From contig JAAWGF010000004.1 of the NCBI GenBank assembly GCA_022795155.1, positions 1,322-65,321 of the forward strand: a stretch of DNA of 64,000 bases, in the 5' to 3' direction. Below the pieces are notes generated by a model that was given only the letters and a program-made list of their open reading frames with translations, made no database searches and had not been told where the DNA came from. The position numbers and the translations under genes were made by a program. Numbering within the stretch: position 1 is the stretch's first letter; each line of letters opens with the position of its first letter. The stretch comes from Bacilli bacterium (lineage in GTDB: Bacteria; Bacillota_I; Bacilli_A; RF39; UBA660). This document shows, piece after piece, positions 3,742 through 14,071 of this stretch.

Positions 3742-5013
3742 TTAATTTATTCTGCCACAAATAGGACAAATTCTTTCATCATCACCTAATTCAGTGCTAC
3801 AAAATTGGCAAGTTCGTCCAAGCGTCATTGGAATATTACGCTTTGTTAACTTTTTAAGAGGCTCTTCCTCTTTCTTGTCTTTTTTCTTGGGGATATTTTT
3901 TTCATTAATTTTGATATCGCTTGGATTAAGTGCCATAAATTCTGGTTTTGGTTTATCTTCTACTTGGACATTATTTACCATAATATTTTGGTCGTTTAAA
4001 GATAAATCGGGTATCTCATTATCCAAACCCTGATTGTTAATTGCTCCTACTTCTCTATTATTTATTTCAGTAATCTCATTTGCCATAGTATATTTATCAT
4101 CATCATTTTGTATATTATTTGGCTCTACATGATCCTCATCTATAATTTCTTCAAAAAAATCGTCATCATCTTTATAATCATATTCTTCAATTTCATCTAA
4201 TAATTCATCATTTTCATCAAGCATACTAATCTCACTGTCATCAGTAATTTTTTCATTCTCATTGGCTATAATATTTTTTGCTTCTGAGTTAAAATCATTA
4301 TCAAAGCTATCATTTTCAATATTTTCAGCTATGCTAACATTATCGCTATTTTCTACATTATTATCGGTCGTAATATTAATATTCTCGATATTTTTACCAT
4401 TTTCATTATTAATCTCTAACATTTCATCAGTTTGTTCAATACTTATAGTTTCATTACTTTCAATTATGTTGTCTTGTTCATTACGTATATTGCTTTTATT
4501 TAAAATATCTGAAATTGGTATTTGCTCTTCATAATTTAGAATTATATCTTCTTCATTAATATTTTGTGGTTCATTAACTTCAAGGTTAATATCTACTTCT
4601 TCCTCATGATTAATAATGTTAATCTCTTCTTTTCTATTATTCATTGTAAATAGACCACCAATTATATTAATAATTAAACCAACTGGATATAAAATAAAAG
4701 CAATTCCATAACTAAAATCAGCACTTGATTTTATTATACTTAATCCATCAATATTCAATATTTTATATATACCATAGGCAATTATTATTAAATTTAATAT
4801 AGTTGGTATTAACGATATTTTATATTTTTTCATTGTCACTAATACCAAATTAATCGTTGATAAGATTATAATGGCGAATGATAGATAAAAAAACTCATCA
4901 ATAAAGGCAAATGATTGATTATTAAATTTAATAATTGGTACAATTGTTGCTACAATTAACAATAAGCTTCCTATATAACTTAAAATAAAAAATTTTTTTC
5001 TTATAGATTCCAT
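3742..5013 (-). CDS. membrane protein with long acidic low-complexity region and C-terminal zinc ribbon
   Basis: About 4 N-terminal hydrophobic helices are followed by roughly 230 aa rich in N/E/D/I. The C-terminus is CQFCSTELGDDERICPICG (CxxC-x10-CxxC). GAAAGGG RBS precedes ATG 5013. Confidence 0.6.
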   Translation of the reverse strand: MESIRKKFFILSYIGSLLLIVATIVPIIKFNNQSFAFIDEFFYLSFAIIILSTINLVLVTMKKYKISLIPTILNLIIIAYGIYKILNIDGLSIIKSSADFSYGIAFILYPVGLIINIIGGLFTMNNRKEEINIINHEEEVDINLEVNEPQNINEEDIILNYEEQIPISDILNKSNIRNEQDNIIESNETISIEQTDEMLEINNENGKNIENINITTDNNVENSDNVSIAENIENDSFDNDFNSEAKNIIANENEKITDDSEISMLDENDELLDEIEEYDYKDDDDFFEEIIDEDHVEPNNIQNDDDKYTMANEITEINNREVGAINNQGLDNEIPDLSLNDQNIMVNNVQVEDKPKPEFMALNPSDIKINEKNIPKKKDKKEEEPLKKLTKRNIPMTLGRTCQFCSTELGDDERICPICGRIN

Positions 5014-5089
5014 ATTAGTCAACCCTTTCAATATAAGTATATCATAATTTTTTAAACTTTAATATTTTTTTTAAACAATCTTAAAAAAT

Positions 5090-5120
5090 AAAAAAAATCT
5101 ACACACATTAATGTGTAGAT
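5090..5120 (-). terminator. rho-independent terminator downstream of the cotY-like gene
   Basis: A 9-bp stem ATCTACACA/TGTGTAGAT (5097-5105 / 5112-5120) is preceded on the + strand by an A-run, which is a U-tract on the - strand. Confidence 0.6.
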
Positions 5121-5130
5121 TCTTTTTATA

Positions 5131-5568
5131 CTATAAACATTCTACAAAAGTATCTTGTAAACATCTTAAATTACAAACACAATTAAGATTTGTTGTAAAG
5201 AAAGAATTAGTTGCTACATATGGAATAGTTGCTGCTTGAGTTGTGTCTGGATTTGGAGCTAGAACTCTAAAAGTTGCACAACAACCATCAATTTTTTCTA
5301 CTCTAAATACTGGTGAAGTTGTTGTACCAAAAACATCTTCTTTAGATGTTGGCATAGCTAGTGGTGTACCAGCATTAGCGCAACAAGTATAAAGCATTAT
5401 AGGTCTTGTATTGCATCCAAGAGTTGTTGCTGAGCACCCTAGAAATCCACGATCACAAGTATCTAAACAAGCATCAGAACAGCAGCTAGCATTTTGTTGT
5501 AAGATAGAAATAACAGTTAAAATTTCAGCAATGCATTGACAATTATTGTTTTCATTATTATTACACAT
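5131..5568 (-). CDS. CotY/CotZ/ExsY-family cysteine-rich spore coat/exosporium protein
   Basis: 17 Cys residues. Blocks NTRPIMLYT, SPVFRVEKIDGCCATFRVL and NLNCVCNLRCLQD align with Bacillus CotY/ExsY (NTRPFILYT, SPIFRVESVDDDSCAVLRVL, DLSCFCAIQCLRD, recalled from memory). The GGGGTGG RBS favours ATG 5568 (MCNNNENNNC...) over the GTG at 5577. Confidence 0.75.
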   Translation of the reverse strand: MCNNNENNNCQCIAEILTVISILQQNASCCSDACLDTCDRGFLGCSATTLGCNTRPIMLYTCCANAGTPLAMPTSKEDVFGTTTSPVFRVEKIDGCCATFRVLAPNPDTTQAATIPYVATNSFFTTNLNCVCNLRCLQDTFVECL

Positions 5569-5669
5569 ATAATCCACCCCTTCATATTATTTTCAATATA
5601 ACATATTCAAAAAAAATAAATTAGTGTAAACTATTACCTATAAATGATTAATAATCAATGATATAAGTT

Positions 5670-5696
5670 ACCTAAAATAGATATTTACATATAATA
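5670..5696 (+). promoter_or_regulatory. candidate promoter of the LysM gene (sigma-K-like AC-16nt-CATATAATA; also contains TATAAT)
   Basis: AC at 5670-5671, a 16-nt spacer, then CATATAATA at 5688-5696 fits the Bacillus sigma-K -10 pattern CATAnnnTA. It could equally be a weak sigma-A promoter. Confidence 0.3.
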
Positions 5697-5711
5697 AAGC
5701 GAGGTGAAATA

Positions 5712-6158
5712 ATGTATAGTATATATCAAATTCAGGTTGGTGATACCTTGGATACTATTGCGCAGAAAGTAGGTACAACGAAACAAATTCTTTTAACAAT
5801 AAATGGTTTAACTGATACAAATTTAATTCCAGGTAATTATATTGTTATACCTATGAATGTAAATTTGCCGTTTGCAACTTACACAGTTAAAAAGGGTGAT
5901 AATATTTACGAAATTGCTCGTCGCTATGGTGTTGATTATGAAACATTATTAGAAATAAATGGATTAAACGCTGATGATTATATTTATCCAGATCAAGAGA
6001 TAATCATTCCTAATCAAAATTTCAATGTATATGTAACTCGTGAAAATGATTCTCTAGCTACAGTTGCAGCCAAATTGGGGGCTAATCAAGGAGAAATAAT
6101 TAGAGATAATGCAACGATTTATTTGTTACCAGAACAATTAATTTTATATCGTAAGTAA
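5712..6158 (+). CDS. 3xLysM domain protein
   Basis: Three LysM repeats: YQIQVGDTLDTIAQKVG..., YTVKKGDNIYEIARRYGVDYETLLEINGL..., YVTRENDSLATVAAKLG.... It has no signal peptide and is divergent from the cotY-like gene. Confidence 0.8.
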   Translation: MYSIYQIQVGDTLDTIAQKVGTTKQILLTINGLTDTNLIPGNYIVIPMNVNLPFATYTVKKGDNIYEIARRYGVDYETLLEINGLNADDYIYPDQEIIIPNQNFNVYVTRENDSLATVAAKLGANQGEIIRDNATIYLLPEQLILYRK

Positions 6159-6164
6159 AACTTA

Positions 6165-6189
6165 AAAAGAGAAAAACTCTTTTTTTTTA
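6165..6189 (+). terminator. rho-independent terminator
   Basis: AAAAGAG-aaaaa-CTCTTTT hairpin followed by a T-run. Confidence 0.55.
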
Positions 6190-6236
6190 TTAAATTATAT
6201 TATATAATATTATTATAATTAGAGGGGAAGTGGATT

Positions 6237-6650
6237 ATGAAAAAAATATTTTTATTCATTATGGTTTTATTACCTTTTTTTGTGGGATGTGGGTCAAAAT
6301 TAACTACATATGAGGAAATTGGATATGATGAATTTATAAAGAAAATCGAAAACAAGGACGATTTTGTACTTTTTATCGGTTCGGCTACTTGTCAACATTG
6401 TGATGCTTTTAAAAAAACAATTAAAAGTGTTGTAAAAAACTATCAAGTAAAAATATATTATATTGATACACATAAATTTAGCGAACAGCAAGCAAATAAG
6501 TTTAAAACTTATATTAATTTTAGTGCAACGCCAACAACCGTTTTTATATATGATGGTGCGGAGAAAACAACATATAATCGTATAAATGGAAATTTAAGTT
6601 ACGATAAAGTTATTTCTAAATTAACTAAAGCAGGTTTTATAAAAGAATAG
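6237..6650 (+). CDS. thioredoxin-fold lipoprotein (CxxC)
   Basis: Signal peptide with lipobox FFVGC, a thioredoxin-like active site GSATCQHCDAF, and about 120 aa of mature domain. Confidence 0.7.
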   Translation: MKKIFLFIMVLLPFFVGCGSKLTTYEEIGYDEFIKKIENKDDFVLFIGSATCQHCDAFKKTIKSVVKNYQVKIYYIDTHKFSEQQANKFKTYINFSATPTTVFIYDGAEKTTYNRINGNLSYDKVISKLTKAGFIKE

Positions 6651-6659
6651 GGGATAAAA

Positions 6660-7691
6660 ATGGAAGAAAATAATATCGAATTTTTAGATGAGCTAGATAA
6701 TGATACTGGAGATACTCAAACTGCACCTGATATTACAGGAATTAAATTTAGTGTTTTAGATAATTATGGAGAGGACTTGACTGCAAAAACATATATAACA
6801 AACCCTGCAATAGCGCGAGAAAGTGAATTAAAAAAACTAATGATTGTTTTATTAACTCCAGAAAAATCTGGGTTATTAATAGGTAAAGCAGGTATTGGTA
6901 AAACTGCCATTGTCGAAGGCTTAGCCTATTTAATTCAAAGAAAAGAAGTGCCTGATGCCTTATTAGGATATCGTGTCATTAAATTTAACTCAACCTCGTT
7001 AGTCGGTAAAGTTACATTAGATGGTGAAGAGCGTCTAGTTATGGGACTTTTAGTTGATGAGCTAAAGGTTACTGGAAAAACAATCGTTTTTATAGATGAA
7101 ATTCATACTTTAATAGGTGGAAAGGGTTCTGGTCCTATGGATTTGGCCAATATGTTAAAACCAGGCCTGGATCGTGGTACAATAAAAGCAATAGGTGCGA
7201 CAACAACAATTGAATATGATACATATGTTATTCGTGACCGCGCCTTTTTAAGACGTTTTGACCGCATTGATGTTTTAGAACCAGATGAGTCAACAACTGT
7301 CAAAATTTTGATGGGTACATTACCAAAAATTGAAAAACAAACAGGTGTTAAATTTAAATATAATGATTATGTGGCTGAAAAGTTGATTACATCGATTGTA
7401 AGTGCTACATCTGAATTTAAAAGAATATATGGTCTTGCAGCCATGTATCCGGATGTTTCATTATCAGTCTTGACGCAAGCCTTTTCTCATGCATTATATA
7501 ATAACAATTCTGTTGTAACAGTTTTAGATGTATATAACGCGATAAAAACTAGTAAAAGAATTTATCCAGATAGTATTGTAAAGGAACTTGCCTTATTTAG
7601 GGATAAATTCAAAAAATTATGTGAAGATGAAGGAATTGTCTTGCCAGTTGTAACAAAAGAGGAAATTGAAAGTATGCAAGAGGATTACTAA
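6660..7691 (+). CDS. stand-alone Clp/Hsp100 D1-like AAA+ ATPase (no N-domain, M-domain or D2)
   Basis: LIGKAGIGKTAIVEGLAYLI (Walker A), IVFIDEIHTLIGG (Walker B), LKPGLDRGTIKAIGATT and DRAFLRRFDRIDVLEP align colinearly with ClpC/ClpB D1. The protein is only 343 aa. Confidence 0.7.
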   Translation: MEENNIEFLDELDNDTGDTQTAPDITGIKFSVLDNYGEDLTAKTYITNPAIARESELKKLMIVLLTPEKSGLLIGKAGIGKTAIVEGLAYLIQRKEVPDALLGYRVIKFNSTSLVGKVTLDGEERLVMGLLVDELKVTGKTIVFIDEIHTLIGGKGSGPMDLANMLKPGLDRGTIKAIGATTTIEYDTYVIRDRAFLRRFDRIDVLEPDESTTVKILMGTLPKIEKQTGVKFKYNDYVAEKLITSIVSATSEFKRIYGLAAMYPDVSLSVLTQAFSHALYNNNSVVTVLDVYNAIKTSKRIYPDSIVKELALFRDKFKKLCEDEGIVLPVVTKEEIESMQEDY

Positions 7692-7725
7692 TAATTATAA
7701 TATATTAATAAAAGAATAAATTAAC

Positions 7726-7754
7726 TTGCAAAAAAATTACTTAATTGGTATAAT
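7726..7754 (+). promoter_or_regulatory. sigma-A-type promoter (TTGCAA-17-TATAAT with TGn extension)
   Basis: TTGCAA 7726-7731, 17-nt spacer, TGGTATAAT ending at 7754. Confidence 0.45.
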
Positions 7755-7769
7755 TATTTGGGTGATTTA

Positions 7770-8120
7770 ATGAGTGAAGACCGAGAACAAGCCATTCAGT
7801 TAATTAAGGATAAATTATGTAATAAAAGTTTACTGTCATATGTCGATATAGCCAGACTTACTAATTATCATCCTAAATATATCTTAAAATTAAAAAAGGA
7901 TATTATAAATGATAACATAAATTATATTCATGGAAATAAAAATAAAAAACCAGCTAATACAATTCCTCTACTAGAAGAACAGAAAATTGTTAATTTATAT
8001 AAGCGTAGTAATGCAAGTATTAGAAGATTTTGCAAGTTCTATGGAAAAAGAAGTTATTCATGCATATATAATGTTTTAAAAAGAAATGGTTTATTAAATG
8101 ATGATAAAAAGCCTTTATAA
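7770..8120 (+). CDS. HTH protein resembling the N-terminal region of ISNCY/ISLre2-type transposases (no DDE domain)
   Basis: IHGNKNKKPANTIPLLEEQKIVNLYKR resembles the HGNxGxKPxNxIxxE...LY block of those transposase N-termini (from memory). The ORF stops at 8120 with no catalytic domain downstream. Confidence 0.4.
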   Translation: MSEDREQAIQLIKDKLCNKSLLSYVDIARLTNYHPKYILKLKKDIINDNINYIHGNKNKKPANTIPLLEEQKIVNLYKRSNASIRRFCKFYGKRSYSCIYNVLKRNGLLNDDKKPL

Positions 8121-10829: not shown

Positions 10830-10871
10830 AGAAAAATGCACGAAATGCATTTTTTCGTGCTTGAAATCTGA

Positions 10872-10900
10872 TTGCAAAAACTGTCAAAATATGGTAATAT
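10872..10900 (+). promoter_or_regulatory. candidate sigma-A promoter for the LytTR regulator/kinase operon
   Basis: TTGCAA 10872-10877, 17-nt spacer, TAATAT 10895-10900. It follows a GCACGAAA/TTTCGTGC hairpin after the ATPase gene. Confidence 0.4.
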
Positions 10901-10959
10901 TTACTAGTATAGGCCAAGGTTTGCTGGATGCAATTTTTTTATTTAATAGGAGTGATTAT

Positions 10960-11661
10960 ATGATTAATTTTATTGTTTGTGATGATAACAAAAAGTTACT
11001 AGATGATGTTGTAGAGCTTATTAATAAGCAGATGATGAAGAATCGACATGAGTATAAAGTTCATGCTTTTACAGATTATAATGATAAATTTATGGATGTA
11101 ATGAATGAAAAACTATCATGTAAAATATATATTTTAGATGTTGAGGTACCTAGTCAATCTGGGATTGATATTGCTAGACAGATAAGAGATAAAGATGTTG
11201 ATAGTGCTATAATCTTTTTAACATTACATAATGAAGTAGGACCAGTTTTATTAAAAGAAGAAATAATGTTTTTAACTTTTATTTGTAAATTTGATAATGC
11301 TAATCGGAGATTACAATCAGCTATCAGTAAAGCTTTAGAACTTGTTGGTAAAAAATTATCGGTTAGATTTGAAGACCAAGGAGCAATTTATACGTTGCCA
11401 GTTAAAGACATTATTTATATTTTAACTGATACAATGGAAAGAAAAATTGTTATTAAAACTGATTATGCACAATTTAGAGTATCCAAGACCCTTGTGGAAA
11501 TGGAAAATTTATTACCACATCAATTCAAACATTCTCACAGAGCCTGTATTGTAAATGTTGATCGCATTAGAATGATTGATAAAAGAAATAATACCATTAT
11601 TTTTGATAATGACGATATGGTCGATTTATTATCAAAAAGTTGTAGAAAGGAATTGGTGTAA
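10960..11661 (+). CDS. agrA: LytTR-family response regulator (AgrA-like)
   Basis: Receiver domain (MINFIVCDDN..., ILDVEVPSQSG) plus a C-terminal LytTR domain (...HRACIVNVDRIRMID...). AGGAGTG RBS precedes ATG 10960. The track start at 10774 overlaps the ATPase gene and is rejected. Confidence 0.85.
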   Translation: MINFIVCDDNKKLLDDVVELINKQMMKNRHEYKVHAFTDYNDKFMDVMNEKLSCKIYILDVEVPSQSGIDIARQIRDKDVDSAIIFLTLHNEVGPVLLKEEIMFLTFICKFDNANRRLQSAISKALELVGKKLSVRFEDQGAIYTLPVKDIIYILTDTMERKIVIKTDYAQFRVSKTLVEMENLLPHQFKHSHRACIVNVDRIRMIDKRNNTIIFDNDDMVDLLSKSCRKELV

Positions 11662-12957
11662 ATGAAATTGTTGTTTGACTTTTTGGGTGCGCTAATTTTA
11701 TCTATATCAGCTATTTATACTATTGGTAAAATAATGTCTTTCTCTATTACCAAAGTAGGAACTGTTAGATACATAATAGCGATATTAACTCTATCAGTTT
11801 ATTTAATTATAAGTTATCATAGTACTATGATTTTTTTAAGATACCTATTGTTTATCTTTGTAATACCTCTAATTCCTATATTCATTATGAAAAAGTTCTT
11901 TAAAGAATCATTTATTGCTAGTTTTTTTGCTTTTATTTTAATAGCTATATCTGAATTATTATTTGCAATCTTTGTATCATTTATATTAAAAACAGATATT
12001 GAAAATTTTTATGGTGTTTTAATTGGGAATGTTGGAGTAGCTGTAATATTATTTACTTTAATAAATATTCCTAAATTATTAGAATTATTACATAATTGGC
12101 TTGAAAAAATATCAGCCTCTAAAAGGTACTATTTAATCGCATTAATTGTTACATTATGCTTTTCAATTAGTATAGTTGTATATATAAATTACTTTGATAC
12201 AACTACAAGAATAAGATTTGTTTTAAGTTTTATTGTAATCATTACTTATACAGTTATAACATTAGTCTTATTTAACGAAAAGAATAATAGTAGTAAGATT
12301 CAATATGAATATGAGAATGTTTTAAATAACCTAAATGAATATGAAAAAATGCTTGATTTTCAAAAAGTTGCTAATCATGAAAATAAAAATCAATTATTAG
12401 TCATAAAAGGAATGATTGATAAAAAGGATTCTAAAATTAATGAGTATATTGATAGTATTGTATTAGAAAAAAGTGAGGATAATGAAGATTTTTTATATCG
12501 CACTAACATTATTCCATCTGGTGGCTTACGAGGATTAGTTTATTACAAATTATTATCAATGAAAGAAAAAGGTATTAATATTAATTTGAATATTTCTAGC
12601 AAAGTGCGAAAAATAGAGCTGGAAAAAATGGGAGTAGGCTTAAATAAAGATTTATGTAAAATTATGGGTGTTATATTAGATAACGCTAGACAAGCTGTCG
12701 AAGATTTAGAACAAAAAAATATCGATATAGAAATGAATCATATCGACAATCAGTTTGTTATAGTTGTAGCAAATAATTTTGAAGGTAATTTAGATTTAAG
12801 CGAAATGGATAACATAGGTTATACAACCAAAGGTAGTGGTCATGGCTATGGACTAGCTTTAATGAAGCAATTAATTGATAAAAATGAGCGATTATATAAT
12901 CAAAAAAATATATATGGTCAAAAATTTGTTCAAAAAGTGGTATTAAGTATAAAATAA
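11662..12957 (+). CDS. agrC: AgrC-like (HPK10) membrane sensor histidine kinase
   Basis: About 6-7 N-terminal TM helices, H-box region VANHENKNQLL, and GHKL ATPase motifs NARQA and GYTTKGSGHGYGLALM. It abuts the regulator gene (stop/start 11661/11662). Confidence 0.85.
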   Translation: MKLLFDFLGALILSISAIYTIGKIMSFSITKVGTVRYIIAILTLSVYLIISYHSTMIFLRYLLFIFVIPLIPIFIMKKFFKESFIASFFAFILIAISELLFAIFVSFILKTDIENFYGVLIGNVGVAVILFTLINIPKLLELLHNWLEKISASKRYYLIALIVTLCFSISIVVYINYFDTTTRIRFVLSFIVIITYTVITLVLFNEKNNSSKIQYEYENVLNNLNEYEKMLDFQKVANHENKNQLLVIKGMIDKKDSKINEYIDSIVLEKSEDNEDFLYRTNIIPSGGLRGLVYYKLLSMKEKGININLNISSKVRKIELEKMGVGLNKDLCKIMGVILDNARQAVEDLEQKNIDIEMNHIDNQFVIVVANNFEGNLDLSEMDNIGYTTKGSGHGYGLALMKQLIDKNERLYNQKNIYGQKFVQKVVLSIK

Positions 12958-12981
12958 AAAACTGCAATTTTGCAGTTTTTA
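12952..12981. terminator. bidirectional terminator between convergent agrC and agrD
   Basis: ACTGCA-atttt-TGCAGT hairpin (12961-12976) flanked by an A-run and a T-run, so it is usable on both strands. Confidence 0.6.
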
Positions 12982-13101
12982 TTATTTTATAAGTGATTTT
13001 GGACATTCTGGTTCATCAATTACAAAAACGAAACAAGCACTACTTCCTAAAGAGGCAACAAATCCAGCTATAGAAGCAATTATTGAAGTTATAAATGACA
13101 T
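12982..13101 (-). CDS. agrD: AgrD-type autoinducing-peptide precursor (39 aa)
   Basis: Not in the ORF track. GGGAGGAGG RBS precedes ATG 13101. Translation is MSFITSIIASIAGFVASLGSSACFVFVIDEPECPKSLIK: an amphipathic leader, a single core Cys, and an acidic DEPExPKSL recognition tail. It lies immediately downstream of agrB. Confidence 0.8.
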   Translation of the reverse strand: MSFITSIIASIAGFVASLGSSACFVFVIDEPECPKSLIK

Positions 13102-13151
13102 ATTAAATACCTCCTCCCTTTTATTCTATGTTTAAATAAATTTAAACCATA

Positions 13152-13745
13152 CTATTGATAATTCTTATAATTATTATACGGTAATTTAAAAAGATGGTAA
13201 ATTGTAGGGGATATCATGAAACACTGTAAAATAATTGCAACTAATAAAGAATTTGCCAAAAACTGATTTTTTATAAATAGAGAAGCAATAATCATACAAA
13301 GGGCTGTGATGCTTGATATGATTTTTAAAAATAATCTTCTTTTTTTACTTATAATCGGTCTTTTATATGTATCAGCTGGCGCATTTTTCATAATGAACGC
13401 CAAACCTATTAATCCCATTATTATTTTTAAATAAAACGAAATTTGAATAACCTTACATCCAAATGGTAAAATTATAAAAACTAATAATGATGATACTAAG
13501 CAAATCCAACTTTTGGTTGCATGCAAGCCAAATGATGGCATTCTTATAAAATTATAGCATATAAGAAAAATTAATGTTTCCTTTATTAACCCTAATAAAT
13601 ATGAAACTGTCAAAATAACAATCATTTTTGTTATGAGAATATAAATTGATTCTAAACCATATTTTATAATCTCTAATTTTTCTTTATCAAAATGATTATA
13701 CTTTTGAATAATTCTCAGTTGTTTACCTATGATAAAATTCCTCAT
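13152..13745 (-). CDS. agrB: AgrB-type membrane peptidase (AIP maturation)
   Basis: Polytopic 197 aa protein. RMPSFGLHATKSWIC carries the catalytic His and Cys with the 7-residue spacing of S. aureus AgrB H77/C84. AAGGGG RBS. Confidence 0.85.
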   Translation of the reverse strand: MRNFIIGKQLRIIQKYNHFDKEKLEIIKYGLESIYILITKMIVILTVSYLLGLIKETLIFLICYNFIRMPSFGLHATKSWICLVSSLLVFIILPFGCKVIQISFYLKIIMGLIGLAFIMKNAPADTYKRPIISKKRRLFLKIISSITALCMIIASLFIKNQFLANSLLVAIILQCFMISPTIYHLFKLPYNNYKNYQ

Positions 13746-14071
13746 ACACTACCCCTTACCCTAATAACAATATCATCATAGGCTCTTATTTGATGTCAGA
13801 CAATTTGCGACACGGCAATAATTCTGCTCAAAATTAATAAATGATAATAAATTATTAATAATATAAATATTCGGACGTAAAAATGGACAATACAAACACG
13901 ATTCTCAAAATAACTTATGAAAGTTTGATAAAATCTAAAGTAAAAATTAGTATGATTCCTTTTAAAACAATGCAGATAATGTCGGTTTTTGAAGGCTTGA
14001 TTTTATTGAAAACCTATAGTCTAAACGGTATATTTATATTGTAAGCGAATTTTACAAGAAGGAGGATTTTT

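Follow-up and report, generated by a model that had tools for sequence, protein, structure and literature searches.

We examined a stretch of 64,000 nucleotides (hereafter the window) on contig JAAWGF010000004.1 of assembly GCA_022795155.1, which represents an uncultured gut bacterium of the RF39 lineage of Bacilli. The window carries four genes of an agr-type peptide quorum-sensing locus, which are read along the + strand as agrA, agrC, agrD and agrB. The latter two lie on the - strand, and the two units are convergent (Table 1). The agr-type reading is supported by family models, catalytic residues and conservation over 80 species-representative genomes of relatives, which served as our species-level comparison set (individual relatives are referred to below by L numbers). 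We consider it highly likely that the locus is a functional-looking agr circuit of the clostridial two-operon type, and the only one in its genome. A first-pass annotation of the same DNA had proposed AgrB, AgrD, a LytTR regulator and an AgrC-type kinase at this position, and family matches for all four genes bear this out. The same annotation placed the regulator ahead of the kinase on the strand opposite to agrBD; both genes are indeed on the + strand, with matching domains. The left edge that it gave to the locus, position 10872, turned out to be the -35 hexamer of the predicted agrA promoter, not a gene start.

Table 1. Features of the agr locus, with positions counted from the first base of the window
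Feature	Position	Strand	Description
Putative AgrA (LytTR) site of the agrAC promoter	10838-10867	+	Direct repeat GCACGAAAT-N12-GCTTGAAAT
Predicted agrAC promoter	10872-10900	+	-35 TTGCAA, 17-nt spacer, extended -10 TGgTAATAT; read from the sequence
agrA	10960-11661	+	LytTR response regulator, 233 aa; PF04397 E=4.2e-14, PF00072 E=7.3e-9
agrC	11662-12957	+	Membrane histidine kinase, 431 aa; PF14501 HATPase_c_5 E=1.9e-11
Bidirectional intrinsic terminator	12957-12980	both	Hairpin AAAAACTGCA-N4-TGCAGTTTTT with flanking A-/T-runs; terminator scan of both strands
agrD	12982-13101	-	39-aa autoinducer precursor; translation MSFITSIIASIAGFVASLGSSACFVFVIDEPECPKSLIK
Shine-Dalgarno sequence of agrD	13106-13114 (approximate)	-	GGGAGGAGG, ending 7-8 nt before the ATG; read from the sequence
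agrB	13152-13745	-	Membrane cysteine peptidase/cyclase, 197 aa; PF04647
Degenerate candidate LytTR repeat	13868-13897	-	GTTTGTATT-N12-GTCCGAATA, 152 nt upstream of the agrB start; weak

The AgrB peptidase and the AgrC-AgrA relay

The first-pass annotation had made its assignment of agrB depend on a profile match, and this match is strong: AgrB aligns to model positions 7-185 of 185 in PF04647 with 122.4 bits against a cut-off of 23 (E=1.9e-35). The proposed catalytic pair of a histidine and a cysteine with a 7-residue spacing corresponds to H75 and C82, which were invariant, together with R68 and G73, in an alignment of nine sequences of relatives. With an offset of 2, these four residues equal R70, G75, H77 and C84 of Staphylococcus aureus AgrB, all of which are needed for proteolysis (PMC10196373). 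AgrB is predicted to cleave AgrD and to close the thiolactone of the signal. A sequence search of the PDB returned no solved relative of this protein.

The sensor of AgrC comprises ~200 aa and is polytopic, with 6-7 hydrophobic segments in residues 1-204 on a hydropathy profile; it is the most divergent part of the protein among the relatives. The kinase part carries an H-box (VANHENKNQL, His at residue 239), an N-box (ILDNA, 339) and a G-box (GSGHGYGL, 391), and it matches the kinase module of S. aureus AgrC (6e52, E=1.1e-11) as well as 4bxi. The His box is shifted in the HMMER alignment of AgrC with 6e52. We assigned H239 as the probable phospho-acceptor because the number of residues from the His to a conserved (I/L)(K/R)GL motif is similar in the two proteins, 51 here versus 54 in S. 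aureus. AgrA contains an acidic pair (D8-D9), D60 and a C-terminal LytTR domain, and no other LytTR protein is encoded in the 1.43-Mb genome. Its best solved relative is ComE (4cbv). We took the ATG at 10960 as the agrA start, and not the upstream TTG of the long open reading frame (ORF), because the regulators of the relatives are also 233 aa long. On two contigs from the window's species (L095, 4320-5090; L096, 3113-3883), the regulator has been called with 256 aa from an upstream start, as opposed to 233 aa elsewhere, and the window counterpart of this start falls inside the predicted agrAC promoter region.

AgrB, AgrC and AgrA all score below the NCBIfam equivalog cut-offs set for the staphylococcal proteins. 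For instance, AgrC reaches 59 bits on NF046015, the staphylococcal AgrC equivalog with a cut-off of 500, and the best NCBIfam match of AgrA, quorum_RR_AgrA, gives 48 bits (cut-off 400), too few for an equivalog. The three larger proteins are agr-type proteins but not orthologues of the S. aureus genes.

The layout is well conserved. agrC is convergent with agrBD in every relative having enough DNA downstream of agrB, and agrA lies beyond agrC on the same strand in all such relatives except L026, in which the best agrA match is on the strand opposite to the usual one. In the genus-level relatives L001-L008 the locus adjoins cspA-hpf-secA; the other flank is occupied by a P-type ATPase gene in L001/L002 and L007/L008 and by a hybrid histidine kinase gene in L003-L006. 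L071 has two tandem agrC-like genes (5018-6099 and 7029-8110) downstream of a single agrBD pair.

The AgrD precursor and its predicted signal

The first-pass annotation had also pointed to a 39-aa ORF with a ribosome-binding site after agrB, and its coordinates, its translation and the upstream aagGGAGGAGGtatttaatATG were all reproduced. We regard this ORF as a real gene, agrD. It might be argued that it is a chance open frame and that the locus consists of agrB and a two-component remnant without a signal gene, as the ORF is very short, is reportedly absent from the supplied annotation and scores 22.4 bits on the Pfam staphylococcal model PF05931, just under the cut-off of 22.7. Nevertheless, the peptide passes the NCBIfam model TIGR04223 ('AgrD family cyclic lactone autoinducer peptide') at 34.6 bits (cut-off 19; E=1.4e-8). 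The ORF starts 50 nt past the agrB stop behind a strong Shine-Dalgarno sequence, and a similar GGAGG is found upstream of agrD in the relatives. In each of the ten metagenomic and metagenome-assembled loci that we inspected (AgrB identity 57-84%), a called gene of 39-40 aa directly follows agrB, and agrD has also been called on six contigs that belong to the window's own species; AgrD-family sequences in records of Acholeplasma sp. and Candidatus (Ca.) Faecisoma sp. are annotated by NCBI as 'cyclic lactone autoinducer peptide'. The codon differences between the window's agrD and that of L012 are mostly synonymous (five synonymous, one non-synonymous).

The AgrD layout that had been described, with an amphipathic leader, a core Cys and an acidic tail, is present in the window and in its relatives. 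The leader covers residues 1-22 (MSFITSIIASIAGFVASLGSSA, ending GSSA), the core is C23-FVFVI-28 and the follower is D29-EPECPKSLIK-39. With one motif pattern, an AgrD ORF of 36-47 aa was recovered in 70 of the 80 species-representative genomes, which makes 71 with the window's own. All 71 share a leader ending in G-S-(Q/S)-A, the Cys, five variable residues and D-E-P-x-x-P-(K/E)-S-L-I-K. The core itself is hypervariable in the five residues after the Cys, and 65 distinct cores occur among the 71 species representatives. A conserved leader and follower around a hypervariable core reads as the signature of agr signal precursors. This conservation of one in-frame architecture already refutes the chance-frame explanation, to which we give practically no weight.

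Ten genomes were missed by the motif. Six of them have less than ~135 nt after agrB, and the remaining four (L066, L069, L083 and L019) carry variants. L066 and L069 have Ser at the ring position (EAS-LVVIF-DEEETP and SAS-PIVIL-DEPTCP, respectively), for which a lactone rather than a thiolactone is predicted, and AgrD of L083 has a different tail. In L019, agrD (~4630-4750) contains an in-frame TGA within the ring-coding core, CFT*WWDEEETPKSLIK, which may reflect a nonsense mutation, an error of sequencing or a TGA read as Trp. Recoding of TGA to Trp in L019 found no support, as translation under tables 4 and 11 revealed no further in-frame TGA in agrA or in the visible part of agrC; agrC of this relative is interrupted by an assembly gap.

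The mature signal had initially been drawn as a thiolactone on a five-membered CFVFV ring. By analogy with studied systems, a six-membered CFVFVI thiolactone is probably the likelier product. In S. aureus, AgrB cuts AgrD between M32 and D33, and the D33-E34 pair directly after the scissile bond is essential for cleavage (PMC10196373). Because the invariant D-E pair of the window's AgrD is D29-E30, and the cut in S. aureus falls directly before D-E, we placed the predicted scissile bond after I28. Exactly five residues separate the Cys from D-E in 71 of 71 relatives, and the residue preceding D is always hydrophobic (I in 31, L in 14, V in 11, F in 6, W in 5, A in 3 and M in 1; n=71), as expected of the C-terminus of a ring. 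The same Cys spacing is seen in AgrD of Clostridium acetobutylicum (…GKCVLVTLYEPKMPEELLK…), in which CVLVTL is followed, across the cut, by YEPKMPEELLK (PMC10301443 supplement). The autoinducing peptide (AIP) of this species is listed as six-membered [CVLVTL] (PMC12312760), and the whole group of C. acetobutylicum-type clostridial AgrDs is predicted to yield six-membered rings (PMC10301443). The alternative is that the same agr system makes a five-membered CFVFV ring, AgrB cutting between V27 and I28. In the AIPs characterised so far, a ring of five members is by far the most frequent, and the Listeria ring A[CFMFV] closely resembles the core of the window (PMC12312760). The fixed spacing to D-E, the role of this pair in S. 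aureus, the hydrophobic residue before D and the rings assigned to clostridial AgrDs with the same spacing all stand against it, and we hold the five-membered ring to be rather unlikely.

For the other end of the signal, a fixed leader-cleavage site is suggested because G-S-S-A just before the Cys is conserved, and the signal may accordingly have no tail or a very short one. Two or three CPBP (MroQ-family) proteases encoded elsewhere in the genome are candidates for leader removal.

The follower of the window's AgrD contains a further Cys (E-C-P), which the first-pass annotation took to be unusual. This proved wrong, as Cys is the majority state: of the 71 species representatives, 57 have C between E and P, 8 have M, 5 have T and one has I, and C. 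acetobutylicum has M at the matching position. The follower Cys is thus the lineage norm at a mostly hydrophobic position, not an oddity of this gene. It is present in ~80% of the 71 species, and it is retained in L069 despite the Ser at the ring position of that peptide. It is attractive to speculate that the follower Cys is chemically active, as a second acyl acceptor, as a transient thioester relay in AgrB catalysis or in an alternative, larger macrocycle, albeit we regard this as very improbable. If it were the case, AIP biosynthesis would involve a chemistry unseen in staphylococci or clostridia.

Variation within species suggests which parts of the system evolve together. We took L003 and L004, as well as L005 and L015, to be the same species in each case because their flanks are ~98% identical. 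L003 and L004 share 98.5-98.7% identity in the flanks, 100% in AgrB, 99% in AgrA and 96-98% in the kinase part of AgrC. Their AgrC sensors are only 50% identical, and their cores are CFILVI and CLVFMI, respectively. Similarly, L005 and L015 share 99% identity in AgrA and 94-99% in AgrB versus 30-53% in AgrC, with the cores CIAFII and CVVLVV. The polymorphic agrD-agrC region spans ~4650-6590 in the locus coordinates of these two pairs. At the sequence level this shows that the AgrD core and the AgrC sensor co-vary, as would a pair evolving as signal and receptor, and the variation is the pherotype pattern of the S. aureus agr groups. The window's own species has the core CFVFVI, with a single CFFFVI variant in L091, and the core CFVFVI is also found in two neighbouring species, L001 and L012.

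Transcription of the locus and the proposed circuit

A direct repeat lies directly after the upstream P-type ATPase gene and is followed by the predicted promoter and then agrA. Direct repeats of 9 bp at a 21-bp periodicity are the architecture of LytTR sites, as known from those of AgrA, ComE and PlnC. Repeats with this length and periodicity are kept in L001, L003-L008, L012 and L015; L003-L006 and L015 have another gene upstream than the window does, yet the repeat stays with the promoter. The 'tgtcaaaatatggtaatat' block of the promoter is also conserved in many relatives. The genome search for LytTR direct repeats that had been proposed with the first-pass annotation gave one clear site, namely this repeat before agrA. 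It is the only 18/18 consensus match in the genome and, in a scan with a position weight matrix (PWM), the best site by 9 bits; its score of 28.7 bits is partly circular, as the PWM was built from 14 half-sites including those of the window. From the repeat and its conservation, agrAC is very probably autoregulated.

Other hits of these scans were rejected. A tolerant consensus scan of the genome returned 117 hits at >=16/18 positions, which we attribute to AT-rich noise, and the next-best PWM hits, one inside a gene read as rpsO (C6) and one ~170 nt before uppS-cdsA (C32; genes identified by eye), were judged to be chance matches. The top intergenic hit after the agrA site, C32 8219-8250 outside the window, scores 17.5 bits and is followed by a -10-like element, TGGTAATTT.

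Upstream of agrB the picture is less clear. An agrA-type motif occurs ~151-171 nt upstream of agrB in L003/L004 (19.2 bits), L005/L015 (14.9 bits) and L016 (13.9 bits). The window, L012 and L001 have only a degenerate copy at the homologous position; that of the window matches ~6-7 of 9 positions per half-site and gave no PWM score. AgrA control of agrBD in the source genome is therefore uncertain.

The two units end at one hairpin. The first-pass annotation had the units converging on a shared bidirectional terminator, and the terminator scan recovered exactly such an element, with T-runs on both strands. The 24-nt hairpin fills the whole gap between agrC (stop codon 12955-12957) and agrD (stop codon 12982-12984). 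It folds with -15.7 kcal/mol on one strand and -15.6 kcal/mol on the other (z -5.4 and -7.0, respectively), better than any of 200 shuffled sequences. An equivalent hairpin is found in L001, L091-L096 and L005. As opposed to this 24-nt element, a 430-500-nt AT-rich stretch separates agrD and agrC in L003-L006 (4772-5234 in L003). When we looked there for an RNAIII-like element or an extra gene, only short AT-rich ORFs were present and none of them was conserved; a small RNA in this spacer is possible.

Taken together, we propose that the circuit would work as follows. agrB and agrD would be transcribed from the - strand. AgrB, with H75 and C82, would recognise the acidic follower DEPECPKSLIK, cut between I28 and D29 and cyclise the new C-terminus onto Cys23, giving a six-membered thiolactone C-F-V-F-V-I. 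The leader ending in G-S-S-A would be removed by another protease, leaving a mature signal with no exocyclic tail or with one of 1-2 residues. This peptide would accumulate outside the cell and bind the polytopic sensor of AgrC, which would autophosphorylate on His239 and pass the phosphate to AgrA, at the predicted acceptor Asp60. Phosphorylated AgrA would then bind the 9-bp direct repeats 21 bp apart in front of agrA and activate agrAC, and it may also, less certainly, act on the degenerate site before agrBD. Both convergent transcripts would end at the bidirectional hairpin.

Several points weigh against this reading in whole or in part. The ring size rests on analogy. The consensus and PWM scans found no credible further AgrA sites in the genome, and we claim no regulon. 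The first half of the repeat before agrA pairs with 10853-10860 to form a weak hairpin, GCACGAAA-N7-TTTCGTGC (10838-10860; -10.9 kcal/mol, z -2.2), and this hairpin may be no more than a terminator for the P-type ATPase gene upstream. A tblastn search for a second agrB, agrC or agrA and a six-frame motif search for a second AgrD-like ORF were both negative in this genome; a second agr locus or LytTR gene could have been missed because the assembly is only ~90% complete. Finally, as the repeat before agrB is degenerate, the signal may be produced without autoinduction, or with a weak feedback loop.

The last point can be carried further, to a receiver-biased or decaying circuit in which agrAC is autoregulated, agrBD has lost its AgrA site and the signal is made constitutively or at a low level, so that the cell mainly hears the identical AIPs of sister species. 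The window, L012 and L001 all lack a scoring repeat before agrB, whereas one is found at that distance in L003-L005, L015 and L016. Moreover, the window, L001 and L012 represent different species (AgrB 82-84% identical) with an identical core. On the other hand, agrB and agrD of the window are intact, with strong ribosome-binding sites and unaltered catalytic residues, LytTR sites are often degenerate, and only 14 half-sites went into the PWM. We judge such a circuit to be quite improbable, and read the locus as a complete and apparently intact agr locus.

Relation to known agr systems and spread in the lineage

The novelty that the first-pass annotation saw in the layout and the peptide did not hold. 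Separate agrBD and agrCA operons have been described for clostridia (PMC12312760, PMC10301443), and NCBI nr already contains a sequence identical to the window's AgrD, which was seen on 33 contigs. The closest parallel is C. acetobutylicum, which likewise has two transcription units, agrBD and agrCA (PMC12312760, PMC10301443). As in the window, its AgrD continues from C-x5 into (Y/D)EPxxPxxL(L/I)K, the thiolactone (predicted or demonstrated) is six-membered and without an exocyclic tail, and no RNAIII-like effector is known. The differences lie in several features. The units of the window converge and have the regulator before the kinase (agrA-agrC), whereas the agr genes of C. acetobutylicum presumably all run in one direction. 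No homologue of the LanM-like CA_C0082 adjoins the window's locus. The AgrD of the window has 39 aa and ends right after SLIK, compared with 54 aa in C. acetobutylicum, and its follower position holds Cys instead of Met. The host, moreover, is a ~1.4-Mb uncultured gut bacterium and not a Clostridium.

The chromosomal order agrA-agrC-agrD-agrB is that of agr2 in Clostridioides difficile R20291, which is the reverse of agrBDCA in S. aureus (PMC3754575). This likeness concerns the gene order only, the source papers being silent on how agrDB is oriented with respect to agrAC. C. difficile AgrD2 differs from the window's AgrD in having Ser, which gives the lactone NSA[SSWVA] with a five-membered ring and a tail (PMC12312760).

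With S. aureus the window shares the four components, the R/G/H/C residues of AgrB and the D-E pair right after the scissile bond, which is a predicted one in the window. The phospho-acceptor His in an HDxxNxL-like box (probably residue 239 here) and 9-bp direct repeats with a 12-bp spacer, forming a putative AgrA site in the window, are common to both as well. S. aureus, in contrast, has a single agrBDCA operon and a divergent RNAIII, neither of which is present here, and its AIPs have five-membered rings with exocyclic tails, unlike the signal predicted for the window. Pherotype polymorphism is found both in S. aureus and in the sister species of the window, being confined in the latter to the AgrD core and the AgrC sensor. 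The variable region of S. aureus agr also covers part of AgrB, unlike the situation in L003/L004 with their identical AgrB proteins.

In Listeria monocytogenes the AIP core, CFMFV, resembles CFVFV-I of the window, and tail-less forms or forms with a one-residue tail occur (PMC12312760). Listeria differs from the window in its agrBDCA operon, in its five-membered ring and in an AIP that is conserved across the genus; the lineage of the window has a different core in almost every species.

Earlier work has already described the components, a two-operon layout, the spacing for a six-membered ring and pherotype polymorphism, and the locus adds little to agr biology as such. The source genome is a metagenome-assembled genome (MAG) of 1.43 Mb in 45 contigs with 26.3% G+C. 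Relatives with the same locus are uncultured gut MAGs labelled as Bacilli, Tenericutes, Mollicutes, 'Acholeplasma sp. CAG:878', Ca. Faecisoma, Ca. Pelethosoma and Ca. Coprosoma; in the NCBI taxonomy, Ca. Faecisoma is placed in Mycoplasmatota incertae sedis. AgrB was found in 144 of 201 sampled genomes (~72%) and in 75 of 98 genera of the host order, all of these genomes being 0.7-1.6 Mb in size. More than one AgrB match (2-3) was obtained in several genomes of the order. Our literature search found no paper discussing agr in RF39, RFN20 or genome-reduced gut lineages, a silence that is a gap in discussion and not a sign of a new kind of system.

A modest reading, to which we give better odds than to an active role of the follower Cys, is that, in a family of uncultured gut bacteria whose genomes measure 0.7-1.6 Mb, agr is an ancestral trait present in ~70% and showing intraspecific pherotypes. 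The value of the finding is modest, and it is ecological and practical. A genome-reduced, uncultured gut lineage has mostly retained agr, which in the source genome is the sole LytTR circuit. The 65 cores in 71 species, together with the intraspecific variants of AgrD and the AgrC sensor, provide a natural set for studies on the co-evolution of signal and receptor outside pathogens. Furthermore, the predicted cyclo-thiolactone CFVFVI is short, hydrophobic and easy to synthesise, and is a concrete candidate for the signal of the host.

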